Shown here piece after piece: positions 7,109 to 44,704 of a DNA stretch of 44,704 nucleotides. A program made the position numbers and the translations under genes. The DNA is from Anaerolineae bacterium. Lineage in GTDB: Bacteria > Chloroflexota > Anaerolineae > S140-20. Position 1 is the stretch's first letter. The number at the start of each line of letters is the position of its first letter. Location: the NCBI GenBank assembly GCA_034435435.1, contig DAOTXN010000147.1, positions 1-44,704 on the forward strand, in the 5' to 3' direction. The notes below the pieces were generated by a model that was not told where the DNA came from, searched no databases, and saw only the letters and a list, made by a program, of their open reading frames with translations.

Positions 7109-7128
7109 ACGGTGAGGAGCGATGAGCG

Positions 7129-12020: not shown

Positions 12021-12034
12021 AATGGAGATGGCAG

Positions 12035-12733: not shown

Positions 12734-12765
12734 AAGTGATCCGTCAGAACAATAAAGGGGGAAAT

Positions 12766-21518: not shown

Positions 21519-21547
21519 CCAACCAGCCATCCGAAAGGAGGAGCCTG

Positions 21548-28269: not shown

Positions 28270-28270
28270 T

Positions 28271-28843
28271 TCACCCCTCCAATCCTACCAAACGGCTCAG
28301 GGCGATATATGCCTGGCCTTCCTCATCATAATCCACGTAATGGCGCACTTTGAGCGCCGGTCGTCGTTTCCCTTGCGGAATCACCGGCGGCGCGTGGCGC
28401 TGGCCCTGTTTCCCTTCCTGGAGCAGGGCGAAGCCGGTCTGTTGGTCTACTTTCACCGGGTTGCCCAGATGCCAGAGCAGGTGTCTCTCGTCTGGCAGCG
28501 CCTTCAATGTGAGGTGGGTATCTTTTATCAGACGAGCGACAAACCCCTTCTTCGTGCGCCAGACCAGCAGTTCTCCCGCCGGGCCAAAGATGCGCGCTTG
28601 CTGCAAGGTCACCGCCCGTAACGGCACGGCGACCGAGGGAAATTCTTTGGAATCGCTGAATACGTCGCTAGAAAGCGCCAAAGTCCCATCGGCCTGCCGC
28701 TTACCCCAGATGACGCCATCGTCGGCGTGGACGAGCAGCCAGGGCATCCCTTCATCCACTCGCTGCGTCAGCCAGGCGCGCGGGTCGCTAACCAATTCTG
28801 TCAGTTTTTCTTTGTCTATCGATATGCCATAGTGCTTGCTCAT
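28271..28843 (-). CDS. Small beta-rich protein inside the RAMP gene array (possibly Csx19-like accessory subunit), 190 aa
   Basis: Translationally coupled on both sides (TGAaATG downstream, 4-bp overlap upstream). Sequence is beta-strand-rich (GVIWGKRQADGTLAL, ELLVWRTKKGFVARL), unlike helical Cas11. Confidence 0.35.
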   Translation of the reverse strand: MSKHYGISIDKEKLTELVSDPRAWLTQRVDEGMPWLLVHADDGVIWGKRQADGTLALSSDVFSDSKEFPSVAVPLRAVTLQQARIFGPAGELLVWRTKKGFVARLIKDTHLTLKALPDERHLLWHLGNPVKVDQQTGFALLQEGKQGQRHAPPVIPQGKRRPALKVRHYVDYDEEGQAYIALSRLVGLEG

Positions 28844-30282: not shown

Positions 30283-31889
30283 GCGCCCACCTCCTGGTCA
30301 GGTTTCTGGTTCTGGCGGATCGCCTTTTTCATCACACCATCAATGAGCCGCGCTGTGTATTTCACCCGCAATTCGGGCGTGAACGCCGCCCGCTGACCTG
30401 CGACGGGGGATAAAGACTGTCCTTTTAAGAGTTGTTGCTGGATGTCTTGCTCCTGCAGCCGGGCCTCGAGCCAGGTCAGCAGGGGAAGGCCCGCCACGCG
30501 CGCCTCCTCGAATTGCCCCTTCGCGCCCTTGAGGGCGGCCAGGTGCACGCGAATGGGAGTCAGATCCCCTTCCCGCAGCGCTTGGCGCGCTGCGTTGCGC
30601 ACCCGCGAAAGCTGCGCGTTCTGTGGCTGGCGCGAGATTTGGATGCCGCTGATGGCAGCCGTCAGGCCCCGTTCCAACAGGTTTACCAAGTGGTTTTGGG
30701 CCATCCGCTGTGCCAATGCCAGACCTTCCTCAGAAAGGTTTGCCTTGGACGTTAATGCTTGACGCGCCCATGGTCCCCAGGCTACAGTATTCGCCGTGTG
30801 CCAGTTGACCGCGATGCGCCCAAACCCCTCGGCTCGTCGCTCGCCGATACCGGCTGCGACGAGATCGCGTAGTTGTTCAGCATCTACCTGCGCCGCGTCA
30901 TAGACAAAGACGCTGCCCGCTTGCAAGACCCAGGTTTGCTCCAGCGGTAACCCCCACTTGCGGTTAAAGCCGCCCACCAATCCCACGCGCTGATACTTGC
31001 GCCGGGCCTGCAGGTCTGGCAAGTCTAACAAGTCAGCCAGCATCCCATCCATATCGGCGCTGAACTGCCCGTCTGACCCGCGCAGGATGGCATCGCTCAG
31101 CAACGTGACGATGACCACGTCACCCGGCGCAGCAGCGGGTGCGTATTCCGTCCAGTTTTCAACCAGGGCCAGTGTTTCTATTTGTACGTGACCATAGCCG
31201 GCCGTGTGCGCGCCGCCCAAGAAGAGATCGGGATTCCCTGCTAGCAAGGTGTGCAGCAGCTCCAGGTCAAAGTCATCCGGCGCGATGATGGCGCCGCCCA
31301 GCACTTCCCCCGCCGCCAACGCATCGTAGCGATAGACCTTGTTTTCCTCGGTGCGGGTGTTCGCTTTGACCAGCGCGATGTGGACGTTTACCTCACGCGC
31401 AGGAGTGTAGAACTTTGTTTGTGGCGGCTCAGGTTCTTTGCCGACAGCAAGCGCTTCCAGTGCTTCCTCGGCGGATAGTTGGGGCGCTTCGGGCATGGTC
31501 AAAACGCAAAAATCGGCATTCTTGGGCGGTTTGGGTTGCTGCAATTGAATGGACGCATCCACTGCCCAGTCGTAGAATGTCCCGCTATCATCTCCCGCCA
31601 AATCCTTCTCCGTGAACCACGAAAGAGGGCGAGGCAAAAGCCGTTTCCCTTCGGGAGCAGGATAGGCATTGAGGAAAGCCACTGTGCCATCCAGAAACAA
31701 CGCACGAGTCTCGGCGTTTTTCGCCAAGTCGCCCGGTTCCTCATCTCGCAAATAGCGCGCGACCACCGCACCGCGCAGGGCGCTGCCCGGCACAAAGGGC
31801 AGGCCGATGGCGCTGTTCTCCTCGCCGGTTTCGGCTTGGGAGACCAGCACCGGTTCCAGCAAACGTAATTGATAGGTCAGGGCTTTCAT
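30279..31889 (-). CDS. Large RAMP-superfamily protein (536 aa). Cas7-like N-terminus, possibly a Cas5-group/Csx10-like or fused subunit.
   Basis: GLPFVPGSALRGAVVARYLR G-rich loop near the N-terminus. 4-bp overlaps with both neighbours. Confidence 0.5.
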   Translation of the reverse strand: MKALTYQLRLLEPVLVSQAETGEENSAIGLPFVPGSALRGAVVARYLRDEEPGDLAKNAETRALFLDGTVAFLNAYPAPEGKRLLPRPLSWFTEKDLAGDDSGTFYDWAVDASIQLQQPKPPKNADFCVLTMPEAPQLSAEEALEALAVGKEPEPPQTKFYTPAREVNVHIALVKANTRTEENKVYRYDALAAGEVLGGAIIAPDDFDLELLHTLLAGNPDLFLGGAHTAGYGHVQIETLALVENWTEYAPAAAPGDVVIVTLLSDAILRGSDGQFSADMDGMLADLLDLPDLQARRKYQRVGLVGGFNRKWGLPLEQTWVLQAGSVFVYDAAQVDAEQLRDLVAAGIGERRAEGFGRIAVNWHTANTVAWGPWARQALTSKANLSEEGLALAQRMAQNHLVNLLERGLTAAISGIQISRQPQNAQLSRVRNAARQALREGDLTPIRVHLAALKGAKGQFEEARVAGLPLLTWLEARLQEQDIQQQLLKGQSLSPVAGQRAAFTPELRVKYTARLIDGVMKKAIRQNQKPDQEVGA

Positions 31890-32554
31890 CCTTGCACCGC
31901 CTTTCGGAAGCTCGCAAAATGAGTTTCGGTCAGCGGTTCACCGCCCGGGGCAAAGAGCTCCGCCTGCACCCGCCCGCGCCCACGATTGCGCCCGGTGCCG
32001 ACACGTCGCAGCGCTTTGACCGTGGCTGCGAGCAGGGCCAGATCGTCAGAGTTCGGCTCTTCGCTGAAGATGAGTTGCGCACTGAACACGATATCGCGGA
32101 GGATGACCCGCATCGTGCGCAGCGTCTCTTTGCGCGGCGCGCCGCTCTCGTCCATCGCGGTCTGGCGGCGTAGCGTGGTCAACATGTCGAGCACATCGCT
32201 GCGCGTCAGAGTCTTTTTCTCGATGTCACGGGACAAGGCCGCCTGTAAGTCGCGCGGCAGGCGGGCCGGACCAACACGCATGATGGCTTCTCCTTCCAAC
32301 CGCGCCCCGCTCTGACCAAAGAGGCGGGTTGCAGCCCGTTGCCAGCGCGTTTTTTGATCTGGGAGGGCTTTACTCAGGGCATGGACCAGATCGTCGCACT
32401 CTGCGCCCAAGACGCCCTTGAGCGCGCGCCCACCGAGATAGGGTAGGCCGACGGCGTCGTGTTGTACCTCCACATCCACCAGACCGGCCACGCCATCGCC
32501 GCGCCCAAAGGTAGCATCACTCAAGAGGGTCAGTTTGAGTTGATAGACTTTCAT
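31886..32554 (-). CDS. cas7: Cas7 (Csm3/Cmr4-like) RAMP, 222 aa
   Basis: MKVYQLKLTLLSDATFGRGDG...GLPYLGGRALKGVLGAECDDL matches the Csm3-type N-terminal strand plus G-rich loop. Confidence 0.55.
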   Translation of the reverse strand: MKVYQLKLTLLSDATFGRGDGVAGLVDVEVQHDAVGLPYLGGRALKGVLGAECDDLVHALSKALPDQKTRWQRAATRLFGQSGARLEGEAIMRVGPARLPRDLQAALSRDIEKKTLTRSDVLDMLTTLRRQTAMDESGAPRKETLRTMRVILRDIVFSAQLIFSEEPNSDDLALLAATVKALRRVGTGRNRGRGRVQAELFAPGGEPLTETHFASFRKAVQG

Positions 32555-34066
32555 CGTGTTATTTCCTCCTCCAATGGGACAAAAAAGTCCAGCGCCTCCA
32601 CTGCGTCAAAGTAGCCGCAGCGCCCTCCTTGCCAGCCCTGCCCCGCCATCATGGGCAGGCTGCTGATTTCCGGTAGACGTTTCAGATCGGGATACGCGGC
32701 GAGGAAATGCTGCACCGCCTCACGCCCGCCACGCAACGCCTCCCGCAGTGCTTTGACCTTGTTGCGCCGTCCGGCCCAGGAGCCATCTCCATCCTGGAAG
32801 GCCGCCATGATCCGTGTAAAAGTTTCCCATGAGCGCCAATCGCCATTGGGTGGATTTAGCCGCACCGGGCGCATGAGCAGGCTATCGTCATGCACGGTGT
32901 ATTCGCGCTCTCGCACCTCTTTCAACGGCAGCACCAGCCCACTCACGGCAAAGTGCCAATCCAGGGCAGTCAAGCGATCTTTGCCGATATAGCCTTTGGC
33001 CGAGGCTGCCAACGCTTCGGCCAGTTCGTAGGCGCGGGAGAAGGGATAGTGCGATTTGACCACAGCCACACCCGCGCGGGCGTGCGCCTGTTCCTTGTCG
33101 GAAAGGATCTGCTCCGAGAAGACCCGCAGATAGTGCGCGGCGACTGCTAGACCCAGCCGCCCTTCGCAGACGAAGGTGACGTCATCCCCGCCAAAGACGA
33201 TGGGGCGGAAGGGCAAATGATCCACTCCCTTCTTATGCGGGCAAGGCACACGACCTCGTATGCGTTTGCTCACTTGGCCCTTCTCATCCTCAACCTCTTT
33301 GACCGCATCAAACAGTAAATCTACGGTGCTGGCAAGGGCTTTATCCGCTGCTGCTTTTACCGAGTTGGAGAAATTTTTCAACGCCTCACAGTAGTCCTCG
33401 TCGCTCCTTCCCACCAATCCCTGGATACGCTCGCCCATACGGTTGCCGTCGGTGTGGATGATGGCCAAGTAACTGGATTCACCCTTGGTCCCAAAATCAC
33501 CGAAATCATAGACAAATTCATAGCCCTGCTCGGTGAGCCTGGATAACTTTCGGCGAAGCTGGGCTTTGCCGTCTTCAGTTGCGCGTAGTTTGGCTTGCAC
33601 CTCGGCGGAAATCAGTTGCCCATCGTCGTTGGTGCCGACTGCCGGCGCGCCGGTGTAGACGCAGGCAGCGGTGACGCCCAGGCCCAGGAGCGGCGTGGAT
33701 GGGCGGCGGTTCAGTTTGCGTTGGGCCAGTTTGCCACGCAACGCCTGGTGCGTATCGCGCAACTGCCCCGACGCGAAAGTCTGCCGCGCTACGACCAGTT
33801 GCAGGCCGGGCGCGTCTTTGAGCGCCTGGTAGGTCAGCTCGCGAGCAAAGGTGTCCGCCTGTACCTCGGTATCAAAGAGCAACATGGCGTTGCCGCCGCC
33901 GGTGTAGACACGCTGTTCCGGCGTGGTCCGCGCCGCGACCCAATCCTCTGTGGCCTGGCGCACCAACTCCGAAGCGCCGATGTTCTGAGCCAGTTGGTTG
34001 CTGCCAAAGATGTAGTTCTGGATGCCGGAAGCTTCCACCAATAACAATGTTTTCTCTGTCATCATC
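32551..34066 (-). CDS. cas10: Cas10-like large subunit lacking an HD domain but retaining the cyclase GGDD motif (type III-D-like), about 505 aa
   Basis: Palm-domain motifs LLLVEASGIQNYIFGSNQLAQNIGASELV and PIVFGGDDVTFVCEG. No HD motif at the N-terminus. The ATGATG start at 34066/34063 is preceded by AAGGAGGG, and the longer ORF start at 34104 is unlikely. Confidence 0.55.
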
Positions 34067-34104
34067 CCTCCTTGAATGAATGAACGAGAAAGCGAGTGAG
34101 CCAA

Positions 34105-35289
34105 TCAGCGAATCTGACCGGCAATGGCGATCCACTCGCGGAAGTGCTGCGCCAGATCCGGCAAATGTTCCCGCCCAAAGACGCGGATTTTACCCTGAGC
34201 GTCCCAAGACTCACTGACCTCATCTTGTAATGCTTGTGCCTGTTCCACACAACATACCACGGCAAAGCGCGCTTCGTCACCGCCCAATTGCCGGGCACGG
34301 ACAAAGGTCTCCATGAGATGATCCTTGGCGGACTGCGTGCGATCCGTCGCCATGCATGAAAGAGCAAACAACTGATAGCCCAACAATGCCGCCACGTCTA
34401 ATTCAAAACCACGATGACCAGGGCGCTTGAATTCCAATCCCATGCCCACTTGATGCAATCCCAACTGCGCGCTCAACGCCTGCAAATTCTCAAACACGTA
34501 TTCTTCCAGCCAGTCGGCAATGAACAACTTGGTGCAATTGGCGAGGTGGCCGTTTTTGCAGTTTAGTTCGTCGGCTACCCGCTGGGGCGTTGGCGCCACG
34601 CCACATAGCGCCGTAAAGGCAGCGATCACCGGCGCTAAAGCCGGGTATTCGGCCGCGGTAGGCAGCTGCGGATTAGCCTGGCTGAGAGTTTGCAGCCAGG
34701 TGCGCCATTGGTTAAAGCCCGCTTTCGTGCAATGTACCTCCACCAGCGACTGGCGCAAAATCGACGGCATGGCTGGCGGACGCTGTACATTCACTTCGTA
34801 GCCATGCAAGGCGAAAAGGGCCTCAAAATCCACTTGCACGCGCTGGCCTACAAAGATGTGCTGGGTGGGCACACCCGGCGCTTCGATGACGAAGGAGAGC
34901 GTGTCGGCATCCAGGTAGCTGAACACACCACGGGGATAGGCCGCGCGCAAGATGTGATAAGATTGCGCGGCCATCGATTTGCTGCCGCCGGTGTAGTTCA
35001 GGCCGATGCTGGCGTTAGGGCCGATCTCCCGCTTTAAGCTCTGTAGGCGCTGGGCGATCAACTGTGGATCGGACTTGGAGATTTCCCAGAGGGTTAGAGT
35101 CAGATCGCCGCGCTTTTTACGGATCTGTTCACTGAGCTGCTTGGCGATGTCAAAGGTTGTATTGGTATGCAGAAGATAGGCCACGCCGCGCTCTGCGGCC
35201 AGCAACAACGCTGCCACATAATTCGGCAGCGGGTTGGCGCCGACCAGGAGAAACAGCACATCCGTTTGGTAGGGGGAGAAATCGGCCAT
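34105..35289 (-). CDS. CARF-domain effector protein (Csx1/Csm6-like, possible C-terminal HEPN), about 394 aa
   Basis: CARF N-terminal strand-loop DVLFLLVGANPLPNYVAALLLAA and the LNYTGGSKSMAAQSY motif. C-terminal R-x5-H candidate (KIRVFGREH). ATG at 35289 (MADFSPYQ). Confidence 0.5.
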   Translation of the reverse strand: MADFSPYQTDVLFLLVGANPLPNYVAALLLAAERGVAYLLHTNTTFDIAKQLSEQIRKKRGDLTLTLWEISKSDPQLIAQRLQSLKREIGPNASIGLNYTGGSKSMAAQSYHILRAAYPRGVFSYLDADTLSFVIEAPGVPTQHIFVGQRVQVDFEALFALHGYEVNVQRPPAMPSILRQSLVEVHCTKAGFNQWRTWLQTLSQANPQLPTAAEYPALAPVIAAFTALCGVAPTPQRVADELNCKNGHLANCTKLFIADWLEEYVFENLQALSAQLGLHQVGMGLEFKRPGHRGFELDVAALLGYQLFALSCMATDRTQSAKDHLMETFVRARQLGGDEARFAVVCCVEQAQALQDEVSESWDAQGKIRVFGREHLPDLAQHFREWIAIAGQIR

Positions 35290-35322
35290 TGTTGTCCTTT
35301 TCAAAAACACCTGTTTGTCTGA

Positions 35323-36315
35323 CTAGTCCATTCCCTTATCGAGAACATACCTCCCCCCTCCCCACACCACCCCCTTCCCCACGCCCACCCACTGCCCCAG
35401 CCACAGGGCCGGCAACAGCGGGCGCAGATCTGCTTCCGAGGCATACCAGGCCTGACCCACGAATCCTTCCAGCGGCATTGTTCCGCCGCGCTGGCTGTGG
35501 CGGGTCTGGCTCATCCAGGTGGTCTCGTGGTGCTCCAGGCGCACCCCGTCGGCCAGGTCCAGCAGCGGGCCGTACTCGGCCTGGGGCCATTCGCCCGCGC
35601 CGTGCACCTCGCTCAGGATGCGCAGCCGGCGCACGACCGCCCGCGCCAGGGGCGCGAACTCGGGGCGGCGGGCCAGCTCGCCCTGCGCTTTGACCTTGAC
35701 CGGGCTGAGAAAGTGCAGGCGCAAGCGCGTGATTTCAGGTGCGCCGCACCTGACCCAGGTCTGGCCGTCGGCGTAGCTCACCGCCATTCCCTCTACCGGG
35801 TCGCCCTGCCACACACCATCCACGAGCAATGGGACAGTCTGGCCGTCCGGCCCGGTCAGTGCTTCCACCCGGCGTATCACAGCTTTCAAGCGCTCGCGGC
35901 CCATTCCGCGCTCGCCCCCCACCATCAGCGCCGCCACAAAGGCCGGCAGTTGCTGGATGGCCGCCGAACCGATGAGGGCCAATTCAAAACGAAACCAGTC
36001 GCCAACGTCCACCTCACGCCGGCGGTCCTGATTGTCCCACAACGCGTAGCCCGGCGGCGGGGTGGGACCCATCAAGCGTTGCAGCGCTTGCGACCAGGAG
36101 GGGTCGGGCTGGGGTTCCAGCAAGAATCCGAACAGACACTGGCGGGGTCGTTGGCAGCCGTTCCGGCAACGTTCGGGCTGCCGGCACCAGAGGGTCCCCA
36201 GATACCACAGCAAGGCCCGGCGCAGCAGGTCGCCCTTGTAGGGTGGCAGGCGGGCGGGAGCGGCCACCTCTAGCTCGAAGCGCAGGCGCATCAGGCGCAG
36301 TTCCGATAACATATC
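35323..36315 (-). CDS. cas6: Cas6-like CRISPR RNA endoribonuclease (330 aa)
   Basis: C-terminal glycine-rich loop GVGKGVVWGGGRY (G.G.....G.G pattern). N-terminus MLSELRLMRLRFELEVAAPARLPPYKGDLLRRALLWYLG is Cas6-like. Position at the head of the type III operon. Confidence 0.5.
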   Translation of the reverse strand, partial: DMLSELRLMRLRFELEVAAPARLPPYKGDLLRRALLWYLGTLWCRQPERCRNGCQRPRQCLFGFLLEPQPDPSWSQALQRLMGPTPPPGYALWDNQDRRREVDVGDWFRFELALIGSAAIQQLPAFVAALMVGGERGMGRERLKAVIRRVEALTGPDGQTVPLLVDGVWQGDPVEGMAVSYADGQTWVRCGAPEITRLRLHFLSPVKVKAQGELARRPEFAPLARAVVRRLRILSEVHGAGEWPQAEYGPLLDLADGVRLEHHETTWMSQTRHSQRGGTMPLEGFVGQAWYASEADLRPLLPALWLGQWVGVGKGVVWGGGRYVLDKGMD

Positions 36316-36655
36316 AGACCCCTTCCCTGCGCTGCGATGCCACCGGCAAAAAGTCTGACGGATGGTTGAGCAGCAAGACCACGCGCGCGGGCTGGAACAC
36401 GCTGATGGTTTGAAGCAAGGGTTCAATGGAATGGCCCACCGGAAAGGCCAGAGTATCGCAAGCGGGGAATTCCAACGCGCCGCGCTGTTCGGCGTAGCAC
36501 AGCTCGGCCGGCAGCAGGTGTTCTACGTACCAGGCCATGCGCTCGGCCAGGGCGCCGCCGCATTGCCAGTATTGTTGTGTGCGCTCGCGCAGCGCGGCGA
36601 TGCTCAAGTCGCCGCAGGCCGCGTGAGAGGCCCACCATCGGAATGAGGAGTGCAT
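36314..36655 (-). CDS. Hypothetical 113-aa protein, first gene of the minus-strand cas operon
   Basis: ORF with RBS AGGAGA. 2-bp overlap with the cas6 start. No assignable motif. Confidence 0.3.
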   Translation of the reverse strand: MHSSFRWWASHAACGDLSIAALRERTQQYWQCGGALAERMAWYVEHLLPAELCYAEQRGALEFPACDTLAFPVGHSIEPLLQTISVFQPARVVLLLNHPSDFLPVASQRREGV

Positions 36656-36659: not shown

Positions 36660-37050
36660 GCTGTGTTCTCCTGTGCATCGTTTGTAACGGGACCCGGTTT
36701 GATTTGAAATGTCGTCGTTCGGTTAGAATGCTGTCAGCGCGGCGTCTGGCGCGATGCGGCGAGATGAGGTAAAATGGAATCAGAAAATGGGCCAGCCAGA
36801 CGTTCTTTGGAATGGCTGCTCCCATTGTACCATAATTCCCCGTTTGTGCGCAAGTTTTTGTCAAGCGCGTCACAGGTTCCAACTCTTTCAAACCAACTTT
36901 TTTTTCAACCGAATACAGGCTGTTTTCGTCGCGCTAGATAGAGACAGATAACGACCTGCTTTTGCGGGCGTGACCCCTCTCCCCATGCGCCCACGGTTTT
37001 GTGGCGCGCCGCGCAGCCGTCGCGCGACGGCTGCCCAGTAAAAATGAGGA
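36660..37050. promoter_or_regulatory. AT-richer divergent promoter region between the minus-strand cas operon and the plus-strand gene at 37059
   Basis: Marked local drop in GC (runs such as CAACTTTTTTTTCAACC, GTAAAATGGAATCAG). No long ORFs. Confidence 0.4.
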
Positions 37051-37058
37051 GAGTAGAA

Positions 37059-37997
37059 ATGTCACGTGCGAAAGCAAATGGGCGGCAACGTAGCGTACAC
37101 TGGAGCGCAGGCTTGCTGCGCCAGGCCGTAGAAGCGCTCTACATGCAACTGGTGGGACCGGCGGACGACGGGTGTGACCCAGGAGTCGTGGAGCACATCG
37201 TGCAGACGGGTATGCAGTCCAAGATATTGGAGGCGCTGCGGGGGCGCTATGACCCGGCCGAGGCCGTGCGCGATCTGTGCACGCGCTGCGCCTTTACCGC
37301 GCTGATGGTGCAAGGGCGGCCCCACCGCGAAATCGCCCCGCTGTACCAACGGCTGATCCAGGACACACTGAACCTCATCACCGAACGGGCAGAAGGGATC
37401 GCCCGGCGTACCGGCGAGAACCCGCTGGACGAGGACCCAGGGCTGCTGATCTCGCTGTGCAAGTGCCTGAGTAGCCACACCCTGCGCCAGCCGATAAGCG
37501 CCCACATCACCTGGAAGCTGGGACACTATGAAGGAGCCGTCAGCCGGGCCATGCGCCAGATCGAGAACCTGGCCAGGCACCCGCAGGTCGTGGAAGCCTT
37601 TGCGGCCCACGTGCTCGACTCGGACCTGCCCGGCGTGCTCAAGGCCCAGTTGCTGCAAATGGCGCGAGGCGGCGGGCGCACCGGCGTGAACCCAGAGTGG
37701 GCCATCCGCTTCTTCGTCCTGCCCGGCACGGTGGCGTTCGTCAAGGCCTTCGCCGGCGTCGTGCAGACGGCCCGCACGCTGTACGACGAGGAAACCTACG
37801 CCGGCGTCGCGTGGCGCGGCAAGCGCAAACTGCCCCGCGAGCGTCGCCAGGGCTACGTGGAGGCCGCTAGGCTATGCGACTCACGTAGCGCCCTCCCGCG
37901 GGTGTCCCGTCACTTGCGGGAGGGCGACGCTCGTCAGGAGGTGCGACGATGCACACCCATCCCGACTATTACACGGAACTGGTGCGGCGGCGCGTGA
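37059..37997 (+). CDS. Hypothetical protein, about 312 aa
   Basis: ATG at 37059 (MSRAKANG) preceded by AGGAGAGTAGAA, inside the longer ORF 36999..37997. Confidence 0.4.
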   Translation: MSRAKANGRQRSVHWSAGLLRQAVEALYMQLVGPADDGCDPGVVEHIVQTGMQSKILEALRGRYDPAEAVRDLCTRCAFTALMVQGRPHREIAPLYQRLIQDTLNLITERAEGIARRTGENPLDEDPGLLISLCKCLSSHTLRQPISAHITWKLGHYEGAVSRAMRQIENLARHPQVVEAFAAHVLDSDLPGVLKAQLLQMARGGGRTGVNPEWAIRFFVLPGTVAFVKAFAGVVQTARTLYDEETYAGVAWRGKRKLPRERRQGYVEAARLCDSRSALPRVSRHLREGDARQEVRRCTPIPTITRNWCGGA

Positions 37998-38320
37998 CCG
38001 GCGACCCGCCCCTGACCGCGCGCCAGCAGCACGAGCTGGACCTGCACCTCTACATCTGCGTCGAGTGCAATGACGAATATGCGCGACTCTTGGAAGCGCG
38101 CGCGCCGGCCGCGGCAAAGGCCCTGCGCCGCGACCTGGAGAGTCGCCTGACCGCCGATATGATCACGCCGTACCTGCGCGACCTGGCGCTGACTCTCTTT
38201 GCCGGGCAGCCGTTAACGGATTTTCAGTTGATCGTGTGGGGTTTTGTGCAGCGCGACCCGGAGGCCCTGGGACGCTTTCGCTTGTTAGAGGCCAGCGTGT
38301 GGCTGGAGAGGGATGTGTAG
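37949..38320 (+). CDS. Hypothetical 123-aa protein with a possible zinc-finger (CVECNDEY)
   Basis: ORF overlaps the previous gene's end in another frame. Annotation is weak. Confidence 0.3.
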   Translation: MHTHPDYYTELVRRRVTGDPPLTARQQHELDLHLYICVECNDEYARLLEARAPAAAKALRRDLESRLTADMITPYLRDLALTLFAGQPLTDFQLIVWGFVQRDPEALGRFRLLEASVWLERDV

Positions 38321-38380
38321 CCAGGCAGCGATTTGTGGTATAATCTATGCATCGATGTGAACGCGTATGTGAGGAGGGAT

Positions 38381-38620
38381 GAGATGATCGCCTGGGATGC
38401 CGTTCGATACGTAGTGGGAGCCGATGGCCGTCCCACAGCCGTTCAAATGGATCTGGAATTTTGGCGGCAGATCCTGGCTGTGCTCGAGGATGCTGAGGAC
38501 GTGGAGATAGCGCGGGCGGCGTTGGCCGAATTTGACGCGGCCGGCGGCGATCCAGAAAAAGCAGGTTGGATACTATTGGAGGACCTCGAAAAAGAATGGG
38601 AGATCGATGACGCGCTATAA
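38381..38620 (+). CDS. Type II antitoxin-like small acidic protein, partner of the RelE/ParE toxin
   Basis: Small acidic protein (MIAWDAVRYVV...EDLEKEWEIDDAL) overlapping the toxin start. Extended -10 TGGTATAAT at 38336-38344 upstream. Confidence 0.45.
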   Translation, partial: EMIAWDAVRYVVGADGRPTAVQMDLEFWRQILAVLEDAEDVEIARAALAEFDAAGGDPEKAGWILLEDLEKEWEIDDAL

Positions 38621-38912
38621 GGTCTACGTTCTCCCTTCCGCAGCGAAAGAGATCGATCGTCTACCGGGCCACATTCGACAACGCGTGCGTCAGGCAGTAA
38701 AGGAACTAGCCCGAGATGTTTATCCGCCGCGCAGCAAACGTTTGGACTACGAGCTCAAGTCTGGATGGGAGCTTGGGCGCTTGCGCCTGGAAAGCTGGCG
38801 CTTGGTTTACGTGATTGACCGAGAGTGGGATCGCGTATTTGTGTTGACCGTCCGCAGGCGACCGCCCTATCAGTACGACGACCTGGATCAGCTTCTATCA
38901 GACGTAGAATAG
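38607..38912 (+). CDS. RelE/ParE-family toxin
   Basis: MTRYKVYVLPSAAKEIDRLPGHIRQRVRQAVKELARDVYPPRSKRLDYELKSGWELGRLRLESWRLVYVIDREWDRVFVLTVRRR matches the RelE/ParE fold signature (..K.L..L.......I...I..L...P.....K.L.G.L....RLR.G.YR..Y.ID.....V.VL.V.HR). Confidence 0.6.
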   Translation: MTRYKVYVLPSAAKEIDRLPGHIRQRVRQAVKELARDVYPPRSKRLDYELKSGWELGRLRLESWRLVYVIDREWDRVFVLTVRRRPPYQYDDLDQLLSDVE

Positions 38913-38974
38913 CCCATTGAAAAAATACGCATCTTTGCGTGGCGCCCGTCCCTGGCTGGGACGGGCGCTTGTGT

Positions 38975-39370
38975 TTAGCGCTGGCGCACCTGTCGCCCGA
39001 CGAGGCCGCGCTCGTTCTGTTCCACGCAGCACGTGACCGGCATGCCCACGTAGGGTGTGATGCGCTCTGCCAGGTCGGAGACGTGGAAAAAGATGCGCGG
39101 ACCGCCGTTCTCGATGAACCCGTAGCCGCGGTCGGGAAAGTAGGCGCTCACCACGCCCGTGGCCACCTCCAGCGGAGGCTGGCCCAGTGCGTTACACATC
39201 GGGCACAGGTAGCGCACCGTGTTCCAGCTCGGGTTGGTCCCGGCCAGCACCATGTGTACGCCCGGATGGCGTGGGCAGCGTGGGTTGGGGTTGCGCCCTG
39301 TCCCAGACGACTGGCGATGCTGCGGCGGGCGCTCGGCCGGACGCCGATAGTCGATCTTGAGCTGTCGCAT
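38975..39370 (-). CDS. Cold-shock-domain protein with an N-terminal basic/Pro-rich region and a Cys pair (CPMC), 131 aa
   Basis: C-terminal TGVVSAYFPDRGYGFIENGGPRIFFHVSDLAERITPYVGMPVTCCVEQNERGLVGRQV matches the CspA-type CSD pattern. RBS AGGAGGAGGAACATG. Confidence 0.55.
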   Translation of the reverse strand: MRQLKIDYRRPAERPPQHRQSSGTGRNPNPRCPRHPGVHMVLAGTNPSWNTVRYLCPMCNALGQPPLEVATGVVSAYFPDRGYGFIENGGPRIFFHVSDLAERITPYVGMPVTCCVEQNERGLVGRQVRQR

Positions 39371-39450
39371 GTTCCTCCTCCTGTTTCGTTTTCCCGTGAT
39401 AGGTATCGATCTTGCATCTCTTGTAACGAAAGGATTAGGGTTGCGAATGG

Positions 39451-39479
39451 TTGCGGTTCCTTTTCGAGTGTGCTACAAT
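39451..39479 (+). promoter_or_regulatory. Sigma70-like promoter: -35 TTGCGG, 17-bp spacer, extended -10 TGCTACAAT, upstream of the DUF433 gene
   Basis: Read from the sequence. 33 bp upstream of ATG 39512. Confidence 0.45.
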
Positions 39480-39511
39480 GACCACAGATTTGAATTTTCA
39501 GGAGAAAGCGC

Positions 39512-39880
39512 ATGACTGAAGCAGCGGCCGATGTTCAAGTGGTGGTGGAGCGGTTAAGCTCACTGGAGGAGCAAGTTCGCCAATTGCAGGAGCTTGTATC
39601 CAGCCGGTGGGCTCCCAGGTCGGTGGGTACTTCCACTGAACATCCCCACGTCACGCGGGTGGACACTATCTTGGGCGGTGAACCGATCATCAGGAGCACC
39701 CGTACTCCTGTGCGGGCGGTGGCCGAGCACTGGAAATTCGGCGATGCACCCGAAGAGATAGCCCGCAAGCTGCCCCACCTGCAACTGGCTCAGATTTTTG
39801 ATGCCCTGAGCTATTATGACGACCACCGGGACGAAATTGAGCGCTATATCGCCCTGAACCGCGTACCGCTCCATGACTGA
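39512..39880 (+). CDS. DUF433-family protein (antitoxin-like, usually paired with a DUF5615/PIN-like partner that is absent here)
   Basis: ILGGEPIIRSTRTPVRAVAEHWKFGDAPEEIARKLPHLQLAQIFDALSYYDDHRDEIERYI matches the DUF433 signature (GG.P.I.GTRI.V..V.....G...EEI....P.L....I..AL.YY). Confidence 0.55.
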   Translation: MTEAAADVQVVVERLSSLEEQVRQLQELVSSRWAPRSVGTSTEHPHVTRVDTILGGEPIIRSTRTPVRAVAEHWKFGDAPEEIARKLPHLQLAQIFDALSYYDDHRDEIERYIALNRVPLHD

Positions 39881-40033
39881 GCGCGCCGATCCTGACTTGC
39901 AGGCCCTTTACCTCTAGCAACCCGTCGGAGAACCCTGTAGCATAGGGCCTTGCGCCCGTTTTGCTTGCGCCCGTTTTGCGCCCACGAGGGGCTAAATTAC
40001 ATCTCCCCGACAGGCTGCTGACCAGCCGCCCAA

Positions 40034-40066
40034 CCGACCACACCTTTGAGGCGTGGTCGGTTTTTT
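40034..40066 (+). terminator. Rho-independent terminator CGACCAC-acctttgaggc-GTGGTCG followed by GTTTTTTCG
   Basis: Stem plus T6 tract read from the sequence, downstream of the DUF433 gene. Confidence 0.55.
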
Positions 40067-40125
40067 CGTTATCCCAGGTGGACCCATTTGACCGTTGGCA
40101 AAAGACGCTCCTCAGGAGGCGTGTG

Positions 40126-41277
40126 ATGCTCTCGAATAACTGCTTGACCGATAGCGTTCAGGATGTGCCCCAAGCCCTCATCCGCGCATTGCTCCGCCAC
40201 CCGCGCGCGCTGCAATCCGCGCTGACCGAGGCCGGCCTGGCCCCTCACGACCTGGCGATCTGGGCCAGGGGGCAAGGCGATCTGGCCGACGTGGAAAAAG
40301 TGGCCGGTTGGCTGGCGGTGAGCCAGCGCCCCGGCGCCTATAAACCCCTGCTGGAGGTGGCCGGCAGCCACCTGCGCGCCGGCGACCTGGAAGCCGCCTT
40401 GCCGGTGTTCCGCTGGGCGTACCAGGCCTGGCAAGCGGCCCCCGGTTGGCGCGCCGCGCACCGCTACGACGGGGCCAAGCTGCTGGCGCTGTGGGGCGAG
40501 TGCCTCTATCGGCTGGACCAATCCGCCGAGGCGCAACAGCGCTGGCTGTGGGCGCTGGACGTGGCGCCCGACGCCGAGACGCTTACCCGCCTGGCCCGGG
40601 CCATCGAGCGGGCCGAGGCCGGAGACGCATACGCCGTCGTACTGAGCGAAGCCGTGCGCCGCCGCCTGCCCGGCGCCGCCGCGCTGCAGGAGCGCTGGGA
40701 GCGCATCAACGCCCTCACCGCCGTGGAGAGCGACGCATCCGACGCCAAAGCGCCCCAGCCCCAATTATCATCCCGAGCTCGTCGAGGGACTACCGCCGTT
40801 CTGGCCGATGTGGCCAACCTGGACCTGGTGTGCGGCGAGCAATTCGGCTACGGGCGACGGCTGGATTATGGCCGCCTGCTGCAAGCCGCTGAGCATTACG
40901 GCCCGGTCGTGATCAAGCTGGCCTGTGTACCCAACGTGCCCGACACGCTGGATGTGCGCGAACACCTGATCCAGGCCGGCTTTGAGATTGACCTCAAGCG
41001 CCCCAAGCGCAGCCACGGGCGCATCGTCGCCAACGCCGACACGGCCATGGCTGCCTTTGCTGTGCGCTGGGCCAGCGACCCGCAAATCGAGCGACTCGAG
41101 CTATGGACCGGCGACGGCGACTTTGTCAAAGTGCGCGAGGTGGTGACGCAGGCATGGCCGGAAGTCGCCGTGGCCTTTCGGAGCTTCGAGATCGGCACGG
41201 CGGCTGAAATCCGCCAGTTGGAGCAGGATTGGCTTCCTATCGGGGTGGAATACCTGCAAAACCTTCCAGGTTTCTGA
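40126..41277 (+). CDS. Protein with an N-terminal helical/TPR-like region and a C-terminal NYN (LabA-like) nuclease domain, about 383 aa
   Basis: C-terminal TAVLADVANLDL...RLDYGRLLQAAEHYGPVVIKLACVPN...IQAGFEIDLKRPKRSHGRIVANADTAMAAFAVRWASDPQIERLELWTGDGDFVKVREVV matches NYN/LabA. ATG 40126 preceded by CAGGAGGCGTGTG. Confidence 0.55.
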   Translation: MLSNNCLTDSVQDVPQALIRALLRHPRALQSALTEAGLAPHDLAIWARGQGDLADVEKVAGWLAVSQRPGAYKPLLEVAGSHLRAGDLEAALPVFRWAYQAWQAAPGWRAAHRYDGAKLLALWGECLYRLDQSAEAQQRWLWALDVAPDAETLTRLARAIERAEAGDAYAVVLSEAVRRRLPGAAALQERWERINALTAVESDASDAKAPQPQLSSRARRGTTAVLADVANLDLVCGEQFGYGRRLDYGRLLQAAEHYGPVVIKLACVPNVPDTLDVREHLIQAGFEIDLKRPKRSHGRIVANADTAMAAFAVRWASDPQIERLELWTGDGDFVKVREVVTQAWPEVAVAFRSFEIGTAAEIRQLEQDWLPIGVEYLQNLPGF

Positions 41278-41293
41278 GACCTGGAAGGTTTTC
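41261..41293 (+). terminator. Hairpin ACCTTCCAGGT-ttctgag-ACCTGGAAGGT followed by TTTTCG. The NYN gene stop codon sits in the loop.
   Basis: 11-bp perfect stem plus T-tract read from the sequence. Confidence 0.5.
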
Positions 41294-41342
41294 GTTATAC
41301 CAAATAGCAGCCCATTTCGACCATCTGATAGGAGGAAGAACT

Positions 41343-42002
41343 ATGAATCCCCAAGACGCCCGGCTGTTGGCCGAAAAGGTGGTGCGCGAGTTGTACCGCA
41401 TCGCCCAGGGCTACGGCAAGGAGCATCCCTTCCGCTTCGAAGACCTGGCTCACGACTTTGCGGTGATGCTAGACCGGAACGTCCTGCACGTCGTTTCGCT
41501 CAAGTTCTACCGCTCCAATGGGAACCGCGACGTGTTGGTGGAATACACCTACGAGCTGCACGCCGGCCGCCCGCACTTTCACCTGGATGACGCGCAAGGG
41601 CTGGGCATCGCGCCGCTCAGTCCGCCCTTCGAGATGGCGCTGATCGTCAACCGCGACCCGCAGGGCGGAGCCTACGAAGGGCAACTGCGGCTCAAGTGGG
41701 GCGACGCGCCCAACTATGCCCGGCGCGGCGGCTTTGAGCACCAGGACGGCAACACAGCGCAGCGCACTGGGGGACGGGCCAGCAAGCGGGTCTACATGGA
41801 CCATGGCCTGCGCCGCCAGGGCCAGGTCAAGTTCTTCCGAGCCGAGCAGAGCTACGGGTTCATCGCCGGCGCGGACGGGATAGACGTGTTCTTTCACGCC
41901 AGCAACGCCGACGGGTTCCAGCCGCGCAAAGGCCAGCGGGTAACTTACCTGCCGCTAGTGACGCCGCGCGGCATCCAGGCCAAGGACGTGCGGCTGGCGT
42001 GA
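41343..42002 (+). CDS. Protein with an unknown N-terminal domain (~150 aa) and a C-terminal cold-shock domain, about 219 aa
   Basis: C-terminal GQVKFFRAEQSYGFIAGADGIDVFFHASNADGFQPRKGQRVTYLPLVTPRGIQAKDVRL matches the CSD pattern. RBS GATAGGAGGAAGAACTATG. Confidence 0.55.
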   Translation: MNPQDARLLAEKVVRELYRIAQGYGKEHPFRFEDLAHDFAVMLDRNVLHVVSLKFYRSNGNRDVLVEYTYELHAGRPHFHLDDAQGLGIAPLSPPFEMALIVNRDPQGGAYEGQLRLKWGDAPNYARRGGFEHQDGNTAQRTGGRASKRVYMDHGLRRQGQVKFFRAEQSYGFIAGADGIDVFFHASNADGFQPRKGQRVTYLPLVTPRGIQAKDVRLA

Positions 42003-42022
42003 GGAGCGCCGAAGGACGGATG

Positions 42023-42499
42023 ACGATGGACCACGAGACCTATTACTACTGCGACGCTTCGATTGACGCGCTGATGCGCTGCACCGGCGTGGCGGTGGTG
42101 GTGCGCGACGGCGGGGGGCGTATCCTGGACGCAGCCAGTTGTTGCCTGGAAGGGATGACCAACAACGAGGCTGAGTACGAGGCGCTCATTCTGGGTATCG
42201 AGCTGGCGCTCTCACGCGCTGAAGCCGCCGAACGGGTGGCGCTGCTCACCGACAGCCAGATCGTGGTGGGGCAGATGGCGCGCCAGTTTGCGGTGCGCGA
42301 CCGCAAGCTGGCCCCACGCCACGAGCAGGCCTCGCGCCTGCTGGCCCAATTGCCCGGCGCAACGTTGATGTTCATCCCCCGCGAGCGCAATTGGCTGGCC
42401 GACGCGCTGGCCACCGAGGCGATGGAAACCGGGTTAGAAAAAGACCTGCCAGGTTTTGGAAACCTGGCAGGTCTGGGAGGGGAGGATGACGCTGTTTGA
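42023..42499 (+). CDS. Stand-alone RNase H (RNase HI-like) domain protein, about 158 aa
   Basis: YYYCDASID...DGGGRILDAASCCLEGMTNNEAEYEALILGIELAL...ALLTDSQIVVGQM matches the RNase H type 1 D-E-D core (D..S, NN.AEY.AL, TDS). RBS GAGGAG upstream. 14-bp overlap with the RT gene start. Confidence 0.6.
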   Translation, partial: TMDHETYYYCDASIDALMRCTGVAVVVRDGGGRILDAASCCLEGMTNNEAEYEALILGIELALSRAEAAERVALLTDSQIVVGQMARQFAVRDRKLAPRHEQASRLLAQLPGATLMFIPRERNWLADALATEAMETGLEKDLPGFGNLAGLGGEDDAV

Positions 42500-43346
42500 G
42501 GCGGTGTGCGACAGCTATAACCTGGACCAGGCCTGGATGGCGGTGCGGGGCAAGCGCACACTGGCCGCCCGGCAGCAAGGGGCCGGGGTAGATGGTGTGA
42601 CGGTGGCCGATTGGGAGCAAAACTGGCCCGCTCGCCTGCGAGCTTTGCAGACCGCCTTGCTGGAGGGCGCATATCACCCCAGCTCGCTGCTGTGGTTCGA
42701 CGCGCCGCGCCGCCCCCCCCTCAATCCCGCCCGCTCGCGGGGGGGAAGTAAAGGTAAGCGCCGCCTGGGCATCCCCACCGTGACCGACCGGGTGGCTCAA
42801 CGGGCCGTTCTGCGCGTGCTGGAACCGCTCTGGGAAGACGTATTCCTCTCGTGCAGCCACGGCTTTCGGCCGGGACGCTCGGTGTTCACTGCTGTGGCCC
42901 ACGTGCTGTGGCACGCGGCGCGGGGGTTGCGCTGGGTGGCCGACGCCGACATCGCATCCTTCTTTGATACGATCTCGCACGAGCGCTTGTTGCGCCAACT
43001 GGCGGCTCTGGACGACGAGCGAGTGCTGAGCTTGCTGGCGGGCTGGCTGGCGGTGGGCGCGGCAGCGCCGGGGCGAGGCGTGGCGCAGGGCGCGGTGATC
43101 AGTCCGTTGCTGGCCAACGTTTACCTGCACCCATTCGACGCGGCGCTGGTGCAGGCGGGTTGGGCGCCAGTGCGCTATGCCGACGATGTGGTGGTGCTGT
43201 GCGCCGACCCCGACCAGGCGCTGCAAGCCCTGGCCCACGTCAACCAGGCCCTGGCGGACCTGGACCTGGCGCTGAACGAGGCCAAGACGGCGGTTGTGCC
43301 GTTCGGGCCCGGGTTCAGCTTTCTCGGAGCGACGTTTGATGACTGA
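42486..43346 (+). CDS. Reverse transcriptase (group II intron-like RT domain only; the Cas1-associated RT encoded separately from Cas1), about 286 aa
   Basis: RT motifs LGIPTVTDRVAQRAVLRVLEPLWEDVFLSCSHGFRPGRS and the catalytic YADDVVVLC. RBS GGGAGGGGAGGATG. Stop TGA at 43344-43346, 12 bp before the cas1 ATG. Confidence 0.65.
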   Translation: MTLFEAVCDSYNLDQAWMAVRGKRTLAARQQGAGVDGVTVADWEQNWPARLRALQTALLEGAYHPSSLLWFDAPRRPPLNPARSRGGSKGKRRLGIPTVTDRVAQRAVLRVLEPLWEDVFLSCSHGFRPGRSVFTAVAHVLWHAARGLRWVADADIASFFDTISHERLLRQLAALDDERVLSLLAGWLAVGAAAPGRGVAQGAVISPLLANVYLHPFDAALVQAGWAPVRYADDVVVLCADPDQALQALAHVNQALADLDLALNEAKTAVVPFGPGFSFLGATFDD

Positions 43347-43358
43347 AGGGGGTGAACC

Positions 43359-44222
43359 ATGACCCGACTGATCGTGGACACGCAAGGGGCGCGGCTGCGC
43401 AAGGTGGGCGAGCGGCTGGCCGGGCCGCTGTCCAAGCACAGCGCGCTGCGCGCCCGCCAGACGCTGGCGGCGAGCGACCCGGCCCAGGCGCTGCCGGTGG
43501 CGCGGGCCATGGTGGCCGGCAAGCTGCGCAACCAGGCCACGGTGCTGCGCCGGTACGTTGCAGATAGCGACGAGCGCGTGCAGCGGGCGGTGGAGATCAT
43601 CGCGGCGCAGGTGGAACGGGCAGGCCAGGCGGCCGACCTGGAGACGCTGCGCGGGCACGAAGGCAGCGGGGCGGCGGCCTACTTTCGGGCCTGGCCGGCC
43701 CTGTTCGACGCCGAGCGCTGGCGCTTCCACGGGCGGGCCTACTATCCACCGCCCGACCCGCTGAACGCTATGCTCAGCCTCACTTGCCCTGGCGGGCAGT
43801 GCCAGGGGGGCTACACGCTGCTGCTCAACGACGTGGTCAGCGCAGTGTATCGCATCGGCCTGGACCCCGACATCGGCTTTTTCCACGCGCTTGACTATGG
43901 GCGGCCCTCGCTGGCGCTGGACCTGGAGGAGGAGTTCCGGCCGGTCATCGTGGACACGCTGGCCCTGAGCCTTGTGCGCAACCAGGTGCTCGAGCCGGGC
44001 GACTTTCGGCAGGAGGAGGGCGAGCGGCCCCGGGCGCTGATGACCGACGACGCGCGGCGTTTCTTCATCCAGAGCTACGAGGAGCGCATGGGGGTGCGGG
44101 TGCGGCATCCGGCGTGGGAGCAGATGCTCACCTACCGCCAGTGCATCGAGCGGCAGGTGGAGCACCTGGCCCGTTGCATCCTGGGGCGCGACGCGACCTA
44201 CGATCCGTTGCTGATCCAGTGA
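43359..44222 (+). CDS. cas1: Cas1 integrase (287 aa; the N-terminal beta-sandwich domain appears shortened)
   Basis: Catalytic-domain motif GFFHALDYGRPSLALDLEEEFRPVIVDTLALSLV (Cas1 E/H/E region). RBS GGGGGTGAACCATG. Confidence 0.7.
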   Translation: MTRLIVDTQGARLRKVGERLAGPLSKHSALRARQTLAASDPAQALPVARAMVAGKLRNQATVLRRYVADSDERVQRAVEIIAAQVERAGQAADLETLRGHEGSGAAAYFRAWPALFDAERWRFHGRAYYPPPDPLNAMLSLTCPGGQCQGGYTLLLNDVVSAVYRIGLDPDIGFFHALDYGRPSLALDLEEEFRPVIVDTLALSLVRNQVLEPGDFRQEEGERPRALMTDDARRFFIQSYEERMGVRVRHPAWEQMLTYRQCIERQVEHLARCILGRDATYDPLLIQ

Positions 44223-44280
44223 AACGTGAGGCGCGAGCTACGTTTCACGTCCCTTTGGGACGCACCACGGAGGAAGGGCC

Positions 44281-44559
44281 ATGTTTGTCGTTGTCGCCTA
44301 TGACATCGCCGACAACAAGCGGCGGGTGCGGGTGATGAAGGCGCTGCAGGGCTTTGGCGAGCACGTGCAGGAGAGCGTGTTCGAGTGCCACGTGGATGAC
44401 GCCGTCTATCGCAAGATGGTGCGGCGGCTCAAGGAACTGGTCAACCAGGGGGAAGATAACGTGCGCTTGTATCATCTGTGCCAGACGGACGTGGCGCGCA
44501 TCCAGCAGTTGGGCGTGGGCCGGGCGGCGCAGATGTTGACCGAATTCGCCATTGTGTAG
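44281..44559 (+). CDS. cas2: Cas2, 92 aa
   Basis: MFVVVAYDIADNKRRVRVMKALQGFGEHVQESVFECHVDD...NVRLYHL is the canonical Cas2 N-terminus with the catalytic Asp (YDI). RBS GGAGGAAGGGCCATG. Confidence 0.8.
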   Translation: MFVVVAYDIADNKRRVRVMKALQGFGEHVQESVFECHVDDAVYRKMVRRLKELVNQGEDNVRLYHLCQTDVARIQQLGVGRAAQMLTEFAIV

Positions 44560-44704
44560 AGGATATTGGATATGTAACTGCTCACCCTGGTAGCTCTTTG
44601 GACAAGATTTACAGGATTTACAGGATTTTTCCACGAATTCCATCCTGTGAATCTTGTGAATCCTGTCGAATGGCTTTGGGTTTGCCGCTTTTACGCATTT
44701 GGGC
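44560..44704 (+). promoter_or_regulatory. Leader-like, AT-richer sequence downstream of cas2 with short direct/inverted repeats. A CRISPR array may begin beyond the window end.
   Basis: ATTTACAGG x2 and CCTGTGAAT-like x3 (ACAGGATTT / AATCCTGT inverted relationship) seen in the sequence. No repeat-spacer periodicity within the 145 bp available. Confidence 0.3.

Follow-up and report, generated by a model that had tools for sequence, protein, structure and literature searches.

An RNase H lineage linked to stand-alone reverse transcriptases in CRISPR adaptation operons of Chloroflexota

Results

A 44,704-nt contig of an Anaerolineae bacterium (assembly GCA_034435435.1, contig DAOTXN010000147.1; hereafter the window, meaning the whole stretch analysed) encodes in one operon a stand-alone RNase H, a reverse transcriptase (RT), Cas1 and Cas2, preceded by a protein with HORMA and cold-shock domains (HORMA-CSD). 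The module is a new form of RT-assisted CRISPR adaptation, in which RT and Cas1 are unfused and accompanied by a dedicated RNase H that co-evolves with them; the window's subgroup adds the HORMA-CSD protein and an NYN-domain RNase. The arrangement is conserved in dozens of related genomes and appears not to have been analysed before.

The five-gene module and its RNase H

Five same-strand genes spanned positions 41343–44559 (open reading frame (ORF) listing and sequence reading). The initial annotation, made from the letters and ORFs alone, was borne out in their common orientation, in the 14 nt shared by the RNase H and RT genes (42486–42499) and in the 12-nt gap between the RT stop and the cas1 start:

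41343–42002, plus strand: HORMA and cold-shock-domain protein, 219 residues (Pfam CSD 1.2e-09, above the curated cut-off)
42026–42499 (ATG; the ORF opens at 41999), plus strand: stand-alone type-1 RNase H of the CRISPR-RT-linked clade, 157 residues (PF13456 6.8e-17; PF00075 5.2e-06)
42486–43346, plus strand: stand-alone group-II-intron-like RT, 286 residues, fingers and palm, YADD motif (RVT_1 1.4e-31)
43359–44222, plus strand: Cas1 lacking 57 residues of its N-terminal domain in frame and with 7 residues inserted (TCPGGQC), catalytic E/H/D kept (Cas_Cas1 6.2e-63)
44281–44559, plus strand: Cas2, 92 residues (CRISPR_Cas2 3.4e-23; TIGR01573)

The contig ended 145 nt past cas2. Cas2 scored 82.1 bits (cut-off 23.8), and an exact-sequence look-up of it returned no record.

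The RNase HI-like identity assigned from the sequence was upheld by profile searches and by the catalytic residues. Both Pfam families were matched above threshold (PF13456, 62.0 bits, cut-off 21.6; PF00075, 27.1 bits, cut-off 25.8), and the D-E-D-D carboxylates were intact (D10, E48, D76 and D126 of 157 residues). Three of the four were aligned to LC11-RNase H1 (3u3g), and the third position was backed by the active-site mutant 4h8k. Among the RT-linked homologues spanning all four positions, 41 of 43 kept D-E-D-D. The nearest solved structures were LC11-RNase H1 (3u3g), the Rv2228c N-terminal domain (3hst) and Sto-RNase HI-type enzymes, and the window protein is predicted to cleave the RNA strand of RNA/DNA hybrids. 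Homologues at 55–81% identity were abundant in Anaerolineae assemblies, labelled in the source databases just 'ribonuclease HI'.

RNase H beside stand-alone reverse transcriptases

One genome per GTDB species was scanned with a profile of the window RT and the loci were annotated with profiles; RT-Cas1 fusions were called by ORF length and the lack of a separate Cas1. Of 49 informative Chloroflexota loci, 45 had an RNase H gene next to the stand-alone CRISPR RT, arranged in three gene orders (groups A to C); of 14 RT-Cas1 fusion loci, all in other phyla, 0 had one. The initial annotation had called for such a search of other RT loci, and had made its reading depend on the gene order recurring in related genomes; that order was recovered in nine distinct loci, which constitute group A.

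Group A, to which the window belongs, had RNase H immediately 5' of RT in all nine loci. Its order was small CSD gene (minus strand), NYN, HORMA-CSD, RNase H, RT, Cas1 (334–335 residues) and Cas2, usually followed by an opposite-strand WYL gene. The cassette sat beside differing effectors, type III-A in locus L001, III-D-like in L006 and III-D in the window. Group B (Chloroflexus, Roseiflexus and Anaerolineales) was ordered RNase H-(SPFH)-RT-Cas1-Cas2, with RNase H either adjacent to RT or separated from it by the SPFH gene, and contained RNase H in 32 of the 36 loci with enough upstream sequence. Group C was ordered RT-Cas1-RNase H-Cas2 in 4 of 4 informative genome loci, in the complete metagenome loci L093, L112 and L147, and in two loci clipped by contig ends (L092 and L135). 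Wherever the sequence allowed, RTs of this kind all adjoined cas1-cas2. Relatives carried arrays of 45–88 repeats about 2 kb downstream of cas2; because these arrays are large, the module is taken to be active in the lineage.

Other genes recurred around these operons. The SPFH/Band_7 gene of Chloroflexus/Roseiflexus-type loci stood between RNase H and RT (L046, 8090–9475); the window has an SPFH gene at 14980–16389, 25 kb away. Tubulin-like genes (PF13809) lay immediately upstream of RNase H/RT/Cas1 in some Anaerolineae loci (L038, 4191–9342; L016, 6087–9840), and L016 also encoded a GTPase with DUF697, a domain listed among frequent Cas1 neighbours (PMC9755687).

Phylogeny and co-divergence of the linked RNase H

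A generic motif, T[NC]NEAEYxA, was used to draw a reciprocal sample of 80 type-1 RNase H genes from metagenomes, and RT or Cas genes were neighbours of 13 of the 80. The neighbour-joining tree (121 sequences) placed 54/54 linked RNases H in a single clade, which also took in a sequence whose contig (1.8 kb) was too short for its linkage to be judged, and left the 66 unlinked RNase HI genes outside. Bootstrap support was 52/100 for the split between linked and unlinked sequences and 100/100 for group A. Pairwise divergence across 37 distinct loci was correlated between RNase H and RT (r 0.92), RNase H and Cas1 (r 0.92) and RT and Cas1 (0.945), with 0 of 2000 permutations as high (Mantel test; RT envelopes were merged, as the Chloroflexus-type RT insertion splits the domain).

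Synteny, the single clade and co-divergence together show that the stand-alone RT/Cas1/Cas2 module has had a dedicated RNase H lineage as its companion in evolution. The same sequence evidence strongly indicates that RNase H is functionally linked to RT-dependent adaptation. A housekeeping RNase HI, adjacent to CRISPR genes through an inherited phylogenetic accident, would agree with the 'ribonuclease HI' label and with membership of a common bacterial and archaeal type-1 family. We regard this as very improbable, given the three gene orders, each inside the adaptation operon, the exclusion of the 66 unlinked metagenome genes from the clade, and the constant presence of RT while effector subtypes vary (III-A in L001, III-D in the window).

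A thumbless CRISPR reverse transcriptase, separate from Cas1

The PADLOC model for CRISPR-associated RTs (PDLC01136) matched the window RT at 7.9e-77, far ahead of any defence-associated RT (DRT) or retron model. TIGR04416 matched with 228 bits over model positions 3–267 of 353, the RT part only, so the window RT has no maturase or thumb part. Its top match in the PDB was GsI-IIC RT (residues 19–273 of 428). The window RT and all relatives stopped directly after motif 7, and YADD was invariant among the relatives. The initial annotation was right to describe a fingers/palm-only RT with YADD, but this is no special trait: thumbless RTs are the norm in CRISPR loci, and the thumb is also missing from the Cas6-RT-Cas1 structure (PMC8102632). 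An Rfam gathering scan of the window returned zero families, group II intron models included, and no tRNA was detected; because the scan was empty, the RT is not considered part of a group II intron or of a recognisable retron. The protein thus had the marks of a CRISPR RT: the RT motifs with YADD, a CRISPR RT model as best match, adjacent cas1-cas2 and no intron RNA.

The RT was only about 41–45% identical to the clade 9 RTs (Chloroflexus aurantiacus, Roseiflexus spp.); its profile recovered Chloroflexus and Roseiflexus loci, at 38–43% identity. The stand-alone RTs of Chloroflexus type (L046, L038 and other group-B loci) had an insertion of 110–140 residues between RT motifs 3 and 4, from which the window RT was free. 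The window lineage is probably related to clade 9 of Toro and colleagues, a kinship judged from profile recovery and identity.

In the relatives, RT (287–305 residues) and Cas1 (334–335 residues) were separate, with intergenic distances of about 80–130 nt and a constant RT end residue. No RT-Cas1 fusion was present, the ORFs being separate in the window and in all close relatives. The initial annotation had treated this split as a departure from the norm, a view that did not survive the comparison; stand-alone CRISPR RTs of Chloroflexi make up clade 9 (PMC5541045). Because RT and Cas1 are natively separate in the lineage, no frameshift is needed to explain the split. That a sequencing frameshift broke a fused gene is scarcely credible, although the two ORFs are just 12 nt apart and Cas1 is abnormally short: besides the separate genes and constant RT end of all relatives, the first 18 residues of Cas1 aligned with the genuine N-termini of relatives, and a second assembly was identical over the junction. 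This assembly (Logan, run SRR10095362; locus L169) was 100% identical to window positions 37005–43806 and so covers positions 43340–43360, for which the initial annotation had asked for re-sequencing or read mapping, with RT and Cas1 as separate ORFs.

A genome-specific lesion in Cas1

The Cas1 match (213 bits) was confined to profile positions 72–283, with positions 1–71 unmatched. Alignment with four close relatives (334–335 residues) located an in-frame loss of 57 residues from the N-terminal beta-sandwich, which is thus incomplete, and placed the 7-residue gain (21 nt) inside a conserved LSLGYTLL segment. Catalytic residues E101, H176 and D188 fell in invariant columns. The shortened beta-sandwich suspected from the sequence was accordingly real as a shortening, but it is a lesion of this genome only and no family trait. 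The lesion is probably genuine rather than an artefact, because L169 carries the identical deletion. L169 breaks off exactly within the 21-nt insertion, at a G-run, a possible sign of strain heterogeneity or of broken coverage at that point. Since Cas1 lacks most of its N-terminal domain, integration is probably impaired in this genome, with the RT-side genes seemingly intact. The best models for Cas1 were those of types I-C, I-D and I-G (200–229 bits), as against 103 bits for the RT-fused Cas1_IIIb model.

HORMA-CSD, NYN and the upstream cassette

The five genes stood as the core of the module, which was found to reach further upstream than the initial annotation had placed its limit, to two conserved genes:

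40126–41277 (start per gene call), plus strand: NYN-domain predicted RNase, heading the conserved group-A cassette (Pfam NYN 2.3e-12)
38975–39370, minus strand: small, divergent CSD protein, conserved with the cassette (CSD 1.1e-05, 25.6 bits, cut-off 27; PADLOC CSD_V 2.5e-07)

The first gene of the five had been read as encoding a CSD protein. The CSD was confirmed by its profile score and an oligonucleotide/oligosaccharide-binding fold; the single-domain view was not, as a HORMA fold was confirmed in the same protein. Pfam bacHORMA_1 scored 29.3 bits, below its cut-off of 35.6, and covered profile positions 15–83 of 169 only. The partners of HORMA proteins in the cyclic oligonucleotide-based antiphage signalling system (CBASS), CD-NTase and a Trip13-like AAA+ ATPase, were not found among the genes annotated in the window and in the group-A loci. 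The HORMA-CSD family was narrower in distribution, with 80 clusters, nearly all of 218–231 residues. Two distant homologues (44–45% identity) were likewise encoded directly upstream of RT. One of them belonged to a fourth operon type, CSD/HORMA-CSD/RT/Cas1/Cas2 beside Csx3 and Cas6, which was seen in L170 (4517–7922) and had no RNase H; therefore HORMA-CSD and RNase H can each link to RT independently.

The NYN gene occupied the matching position in all nine distinct group-A loci. The N-terminal approximately 220 residues of its product had no detectable family. The position of the small CSD gene was conserved in group-A loci as well. Two genes with no family assignment (37059–37997 and 37949–38320, plus strand) headed the cassette in those group-A loci reaching far enough upstream; Pfam, PADLOC and PDB profile searches with their products gave nothing significant. 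The smaller protein (37949–38320) had an HxxxCxxC motif that recalls zinc-binding anti-sigma factors. In this genome only, the stretch between these conserved upstream genes and NYN had gained a ParE-like toxin pair and a gene for a DUF433 protein (38333–38912 and 39512–39880, plus strand).

Assignment to a type III-D locus

An effector operon, identified by profile matches, lay upstream of the cassette on the minus strand:

26026–36426, minus strand: type III-D effector operon encoding Cas6, a CARF-PD-(D/E)xK nuclease, Cas10, Csx10, Csx7-type repeat-associated mysterious proteins (RAMPs) and a TIGR03986 RAMP-CSD fusion

Cas10 palm2, TIGR02674 (Csx10), TIGR02581 (Csx7) and TIGR03986 (RAMP) were matched, TIGR03986 alone above its NCBIfam cut-off and the others below theirs. 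The five-gene module is likely the adaptation module of this type III-D CRISPR-Cas locus, which is of an Anaerolineae-type Chloroflexota. The final gene of the effector operon (26026–28269, minus strand) encoded the TIGR03986-family RAMP (394.8 bits), with an additional C-terminal CSD at residues 683–744; counting this fusion, the locus encodes three CSD proteins. An 86-nt direct repeat, with 87% identical copies at 24733–24818 and 25920–26005, 1.2 kb apart, lay directly downstream of the operon.

Proposed mechanism

In the reading we favour as the most economical and consider probable, RT-assisted spacer acquisition is performed by separate proteins in place of an RT-Cas1 fusion, and RNA is turned into DNA prespacers by a multi-protein module. 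Each biochemical step below is a prediction drawn from the observed domain identities, motifs, linkage and co-divergence with RT, Cas1 and Cas2, and the same holds for the RNA-strand removal and the ssRNA delivery by the CSD that the initial annotation had proposed. The thumbless group-II-like RT would copy an RNA protospacer into complementary DNA (cDNA). HORMA-CSD could aid the RT, the CSD by holding single strands of RNA or DNA and the HORMA domain by docking on a partner, as the HORMA protein Rev7 docks on DNA polymerase zeta; it may tether the single-stranded template to the RT or gate RT activity. The dedicated RNase H would then remove or nick the RNA strand of the RNA/cDNA hybrid, the second DNA strand would be made by the RT or a host polymerase, and the type-I-like, presumably DNA-handling Cas1-Cas2 would insert an all-DNA prespacer into the array. 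RNA trimming, of the protospacer or of CRISPR RNA (crRNA), may be the part played by the NYN RNase.

A related sequence of events has been raised for Marinomonas RT-Cas1, namely digestion by host RNase H followed by second-strand synthesis, as a possible alternative to the direct integration of dN-tailed RNA/cDNA duplexes that was reported and favoured there (10.1101/2023.09.01.555893). RNase H could also act after integration, with Cas1-Cas2 inserting an RNA/cDNA or RNA-containing prespacer and gap repair yielding the DNA spacer once the RNA strand was removed. The Marinomonas result is a precedent for this order, and all of the linkage evidence suits either timing equally. The Cas1 here is type-I-like and not of the RT-fused lineage, a point on the other side, and the sequence does not separate the two timings. 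We hold removal after integration to be unlikely.

Several observations weigh against the favoured mechanism. RNase H was absent from four group-B loci whose upstream sequence extended over 10 kb (L065, L081, L082 and L088), also in a relaxed profile search, and L170 has HORMA-CSD-RT-Cas1-Cas2 with no RNase H; because of these five loci, RNase H must be dispensable or replaceable by a host enzyme. Nor is RNA removal before integration obligatory, since fused RT-Cas1 proteins work with no dedicated RNase H and, as reported for Marinomonas (10.1101/2023.09.01.555893), integrate RNA/cDNA directly. The single RNase H clade has only moderate bootstrap support, and co-divergence may be due in part to common host phylogeny. 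The window's Cas1 is truncated, and its contig has no CRISPR array (Tandem Repeats Finder and direct-repeat search).

A quite different assignment would make NYN, HORMA-CSD, RNase H and RT a self-contained defence cassette of DRT or retron type, beside cas1-cas2 with no role in spacer acquisition. Several features are in keeping with it: in L001 the WYL gene stands between RT and an inverted cas2-cas1 pair; the CSD resembles retron Se72 and PADLOC CSD_V effectors, below their cut-offs; HORMA proteins are known from CBASS defence; and the region of the window is defence-rich, with bacteriophage exclusion (BREX) genes. It is nevertheless improbable. The CRISPR-associated RT model lies well above any DRT or retron model, the gathering scan with Rfam detected no retron-like or other known noncoding RNA in the window, and every such RT adjoins cas1-cas2 where sequence is available. 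RNase H moreover co-diverges with Cas1, and seven complete loci and the two contig-clipped ones have it flanked by cas1 and cas2.

An extension of the favoured mechanism is offered tentatively: RT, RNase H and HORMA-CSD might form a trans-acting holoenzyme, resembling retroviral RT, that makes double-stranded DNA prespacers from RNA for a DNA-only Cas1-Cas2, with HORMA as a switch or docking subunit licensing reverse transcription only under infection. If so, it would be a second, independently evolved route to RNA spacer acquisition, apart from RT-Cas1 fusions.

For RT-Cas1 systems it is debated whether RNA/cDNA duplexes are integrated directly or first converted to double-stranded DNA, and an RNase H inside the adaptation operon, sometimes between cas1 and cas2, points to a route with built-in RNA removal. 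The genes are defined for deletion or reconstitution, and the cultured Chloroflexus islandicus has one of the arrangements (L046). Through the HORMA-CSD protein, the range of bacterial HORMA proteins widens from CBASS to a polymerase of another class. The small unfused proteins (RT, 286 residues; RNase H, about 140; HORMA-CSD, 219) could serve in transcriptional-recording tools.

Relation to known systems

RT-Cas1 and Cas6-RT-Cas1 modules (Marinomonas mediterranea MMB-1, Vibrio vulnificus, Thiomicrospira) share with the window a group-II-derived thumbless RT, Cas1-Cas2, the type III context and the expected acquisition of RNA spacers. The window differs in its separate RT, its type-I-like Cas1 and its added RNase H, a gene seen at none of the fusion loci, and its subgroup has the HORMA-CSD protein and NYN RNase in addition. 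The clade 9 RTs (Chloroflexus aurantiacus, Roseiflexus spp.), for which "no complete operons" were available (PMC5541045), likewise are stand-alone and adjoin cas1 in Chloroflexi, and group B includes Chloroflexus and Roseiflexus loci of the same layout; the window RT is set apart from them by its identity level and by the lack of the motif 3–4 insertion.

Retroviral and long terminal repeat (LTR) retrotransposon RTs also pair an RNA-dependent DNA polymerase with a type-1 RNase H and convert RNA to double-stranded DNA. Their RNase H domain is covalently linked, whereas the window encodes separate proteins of independent origin, a group-II-like RT and an RNase H of the LC11/Sto-RNase HI kind, and what is made is presumably not a genome but a prespacer, about 35 bp long. 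In contrast to CBASS HORMA proteins and Rev7, the window HORMA is fused to a CSD, has an RT as its apparent partner, has no Trip13-like ATPase or CD-NTase among the annotated genes, and scores below the bacHORMA_1 cut-off.

Type V retrons of the Se72 kind combine an RT gene with a CSD protein, and weak matches to the Se72 effector and PADLOC CSD_V were obtained. The Se72 score (NF038236) was 26.6 bits against a cut-off of 82; the window RT is not of retron type, no msr/msd RNA was detected, and the operon serves CRISPR adaptation. An NYN ribonuclease is also encoded in the type III-B/CorA locus of Bacteroides fragilis, and trimming of crRNA intermediates was proposed for it (10.1101/2024.04.08.588522). 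The window locus has no CorA or DHH, and its NYN protein heads an adaptation-side cassette and bears the N-terminal region described above.

No analysis of the RNase H-RT-Cas1 association was found in the full-text literature, with many subscription papers not covered. An RNase H partner is unmentioned in PMC5541045, its 2018 follow-up, the Silas 2017 survey, the 2021 prokaryotic RT review, the CRISPR-linked gene survey and the 2025 classification. The sole trace found was "RNase H-like (26 ORFs)" among frequent non-cas neighbours of novel, mostly Chloroflexota, hot-spring Cas1 clades (PMC9755687). The claim of an undescribed elaboration thus held for analysis of the association and has to be qualified by this passing mention.

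Hairpins and other features of this genome

Two related hairpins were present in the cassette:

42442–42474, plus strand: perfect hairpin with a 15-bp stem within the 3' end of the RNase H gene (dG -29.1, z -5.7)
41258–41292, plus strand: related, terminator-like hairpin with a 17-bp stem that spans the stop codon of NYN and has a T-rich run behind it (dG -23.4, z -5.6)

The first hairpin lengthened the RNase H frame, giving a C-terminal extension and the 14-nt overlap with RT. The RNase H proteins of relatives stopped about 15–20 residues sooner, and their genes overlapped RT by 1 nt or were 34–82 nt away. Translational coupling through the overlap had been proposed from the sequence; the overlap itself was verified, but it is confined to this genome and is not a feature of the family. 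Hairpin copies were found in 0 of 168 related loci, and a reading of the hairpins as a conserved regulatory element was rejected on that ground; they are genome-specific. Both are very stable and shared the core ACCTKCCAGGTTT; it had four occurrences (as arms) where chance would give 0.15. The hairpins may represent a small palindromic element specific to this genome.

The remainder of the window was rich in defence and signalling genes (1339–4668, 4802–14730 and 21386–23104), including BREX PglZ and BrxL, a JAB-ThiF fusion, large GAF/PAS histidine kinases with S1 domains, and response regulators with TCAD9 and CyanoTRADDas_TM domains. Tandem short repeats followed directly after cas2 (44602–44671), three copies of ACAGGATTT and then three of the near-complement ATCCTGTGA. 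Other short repeats lay at the equivalent site in L006, between cas2 and the WYL gene (12855–13050), and these repeats downstream of cas2 may be regulator binding sites.

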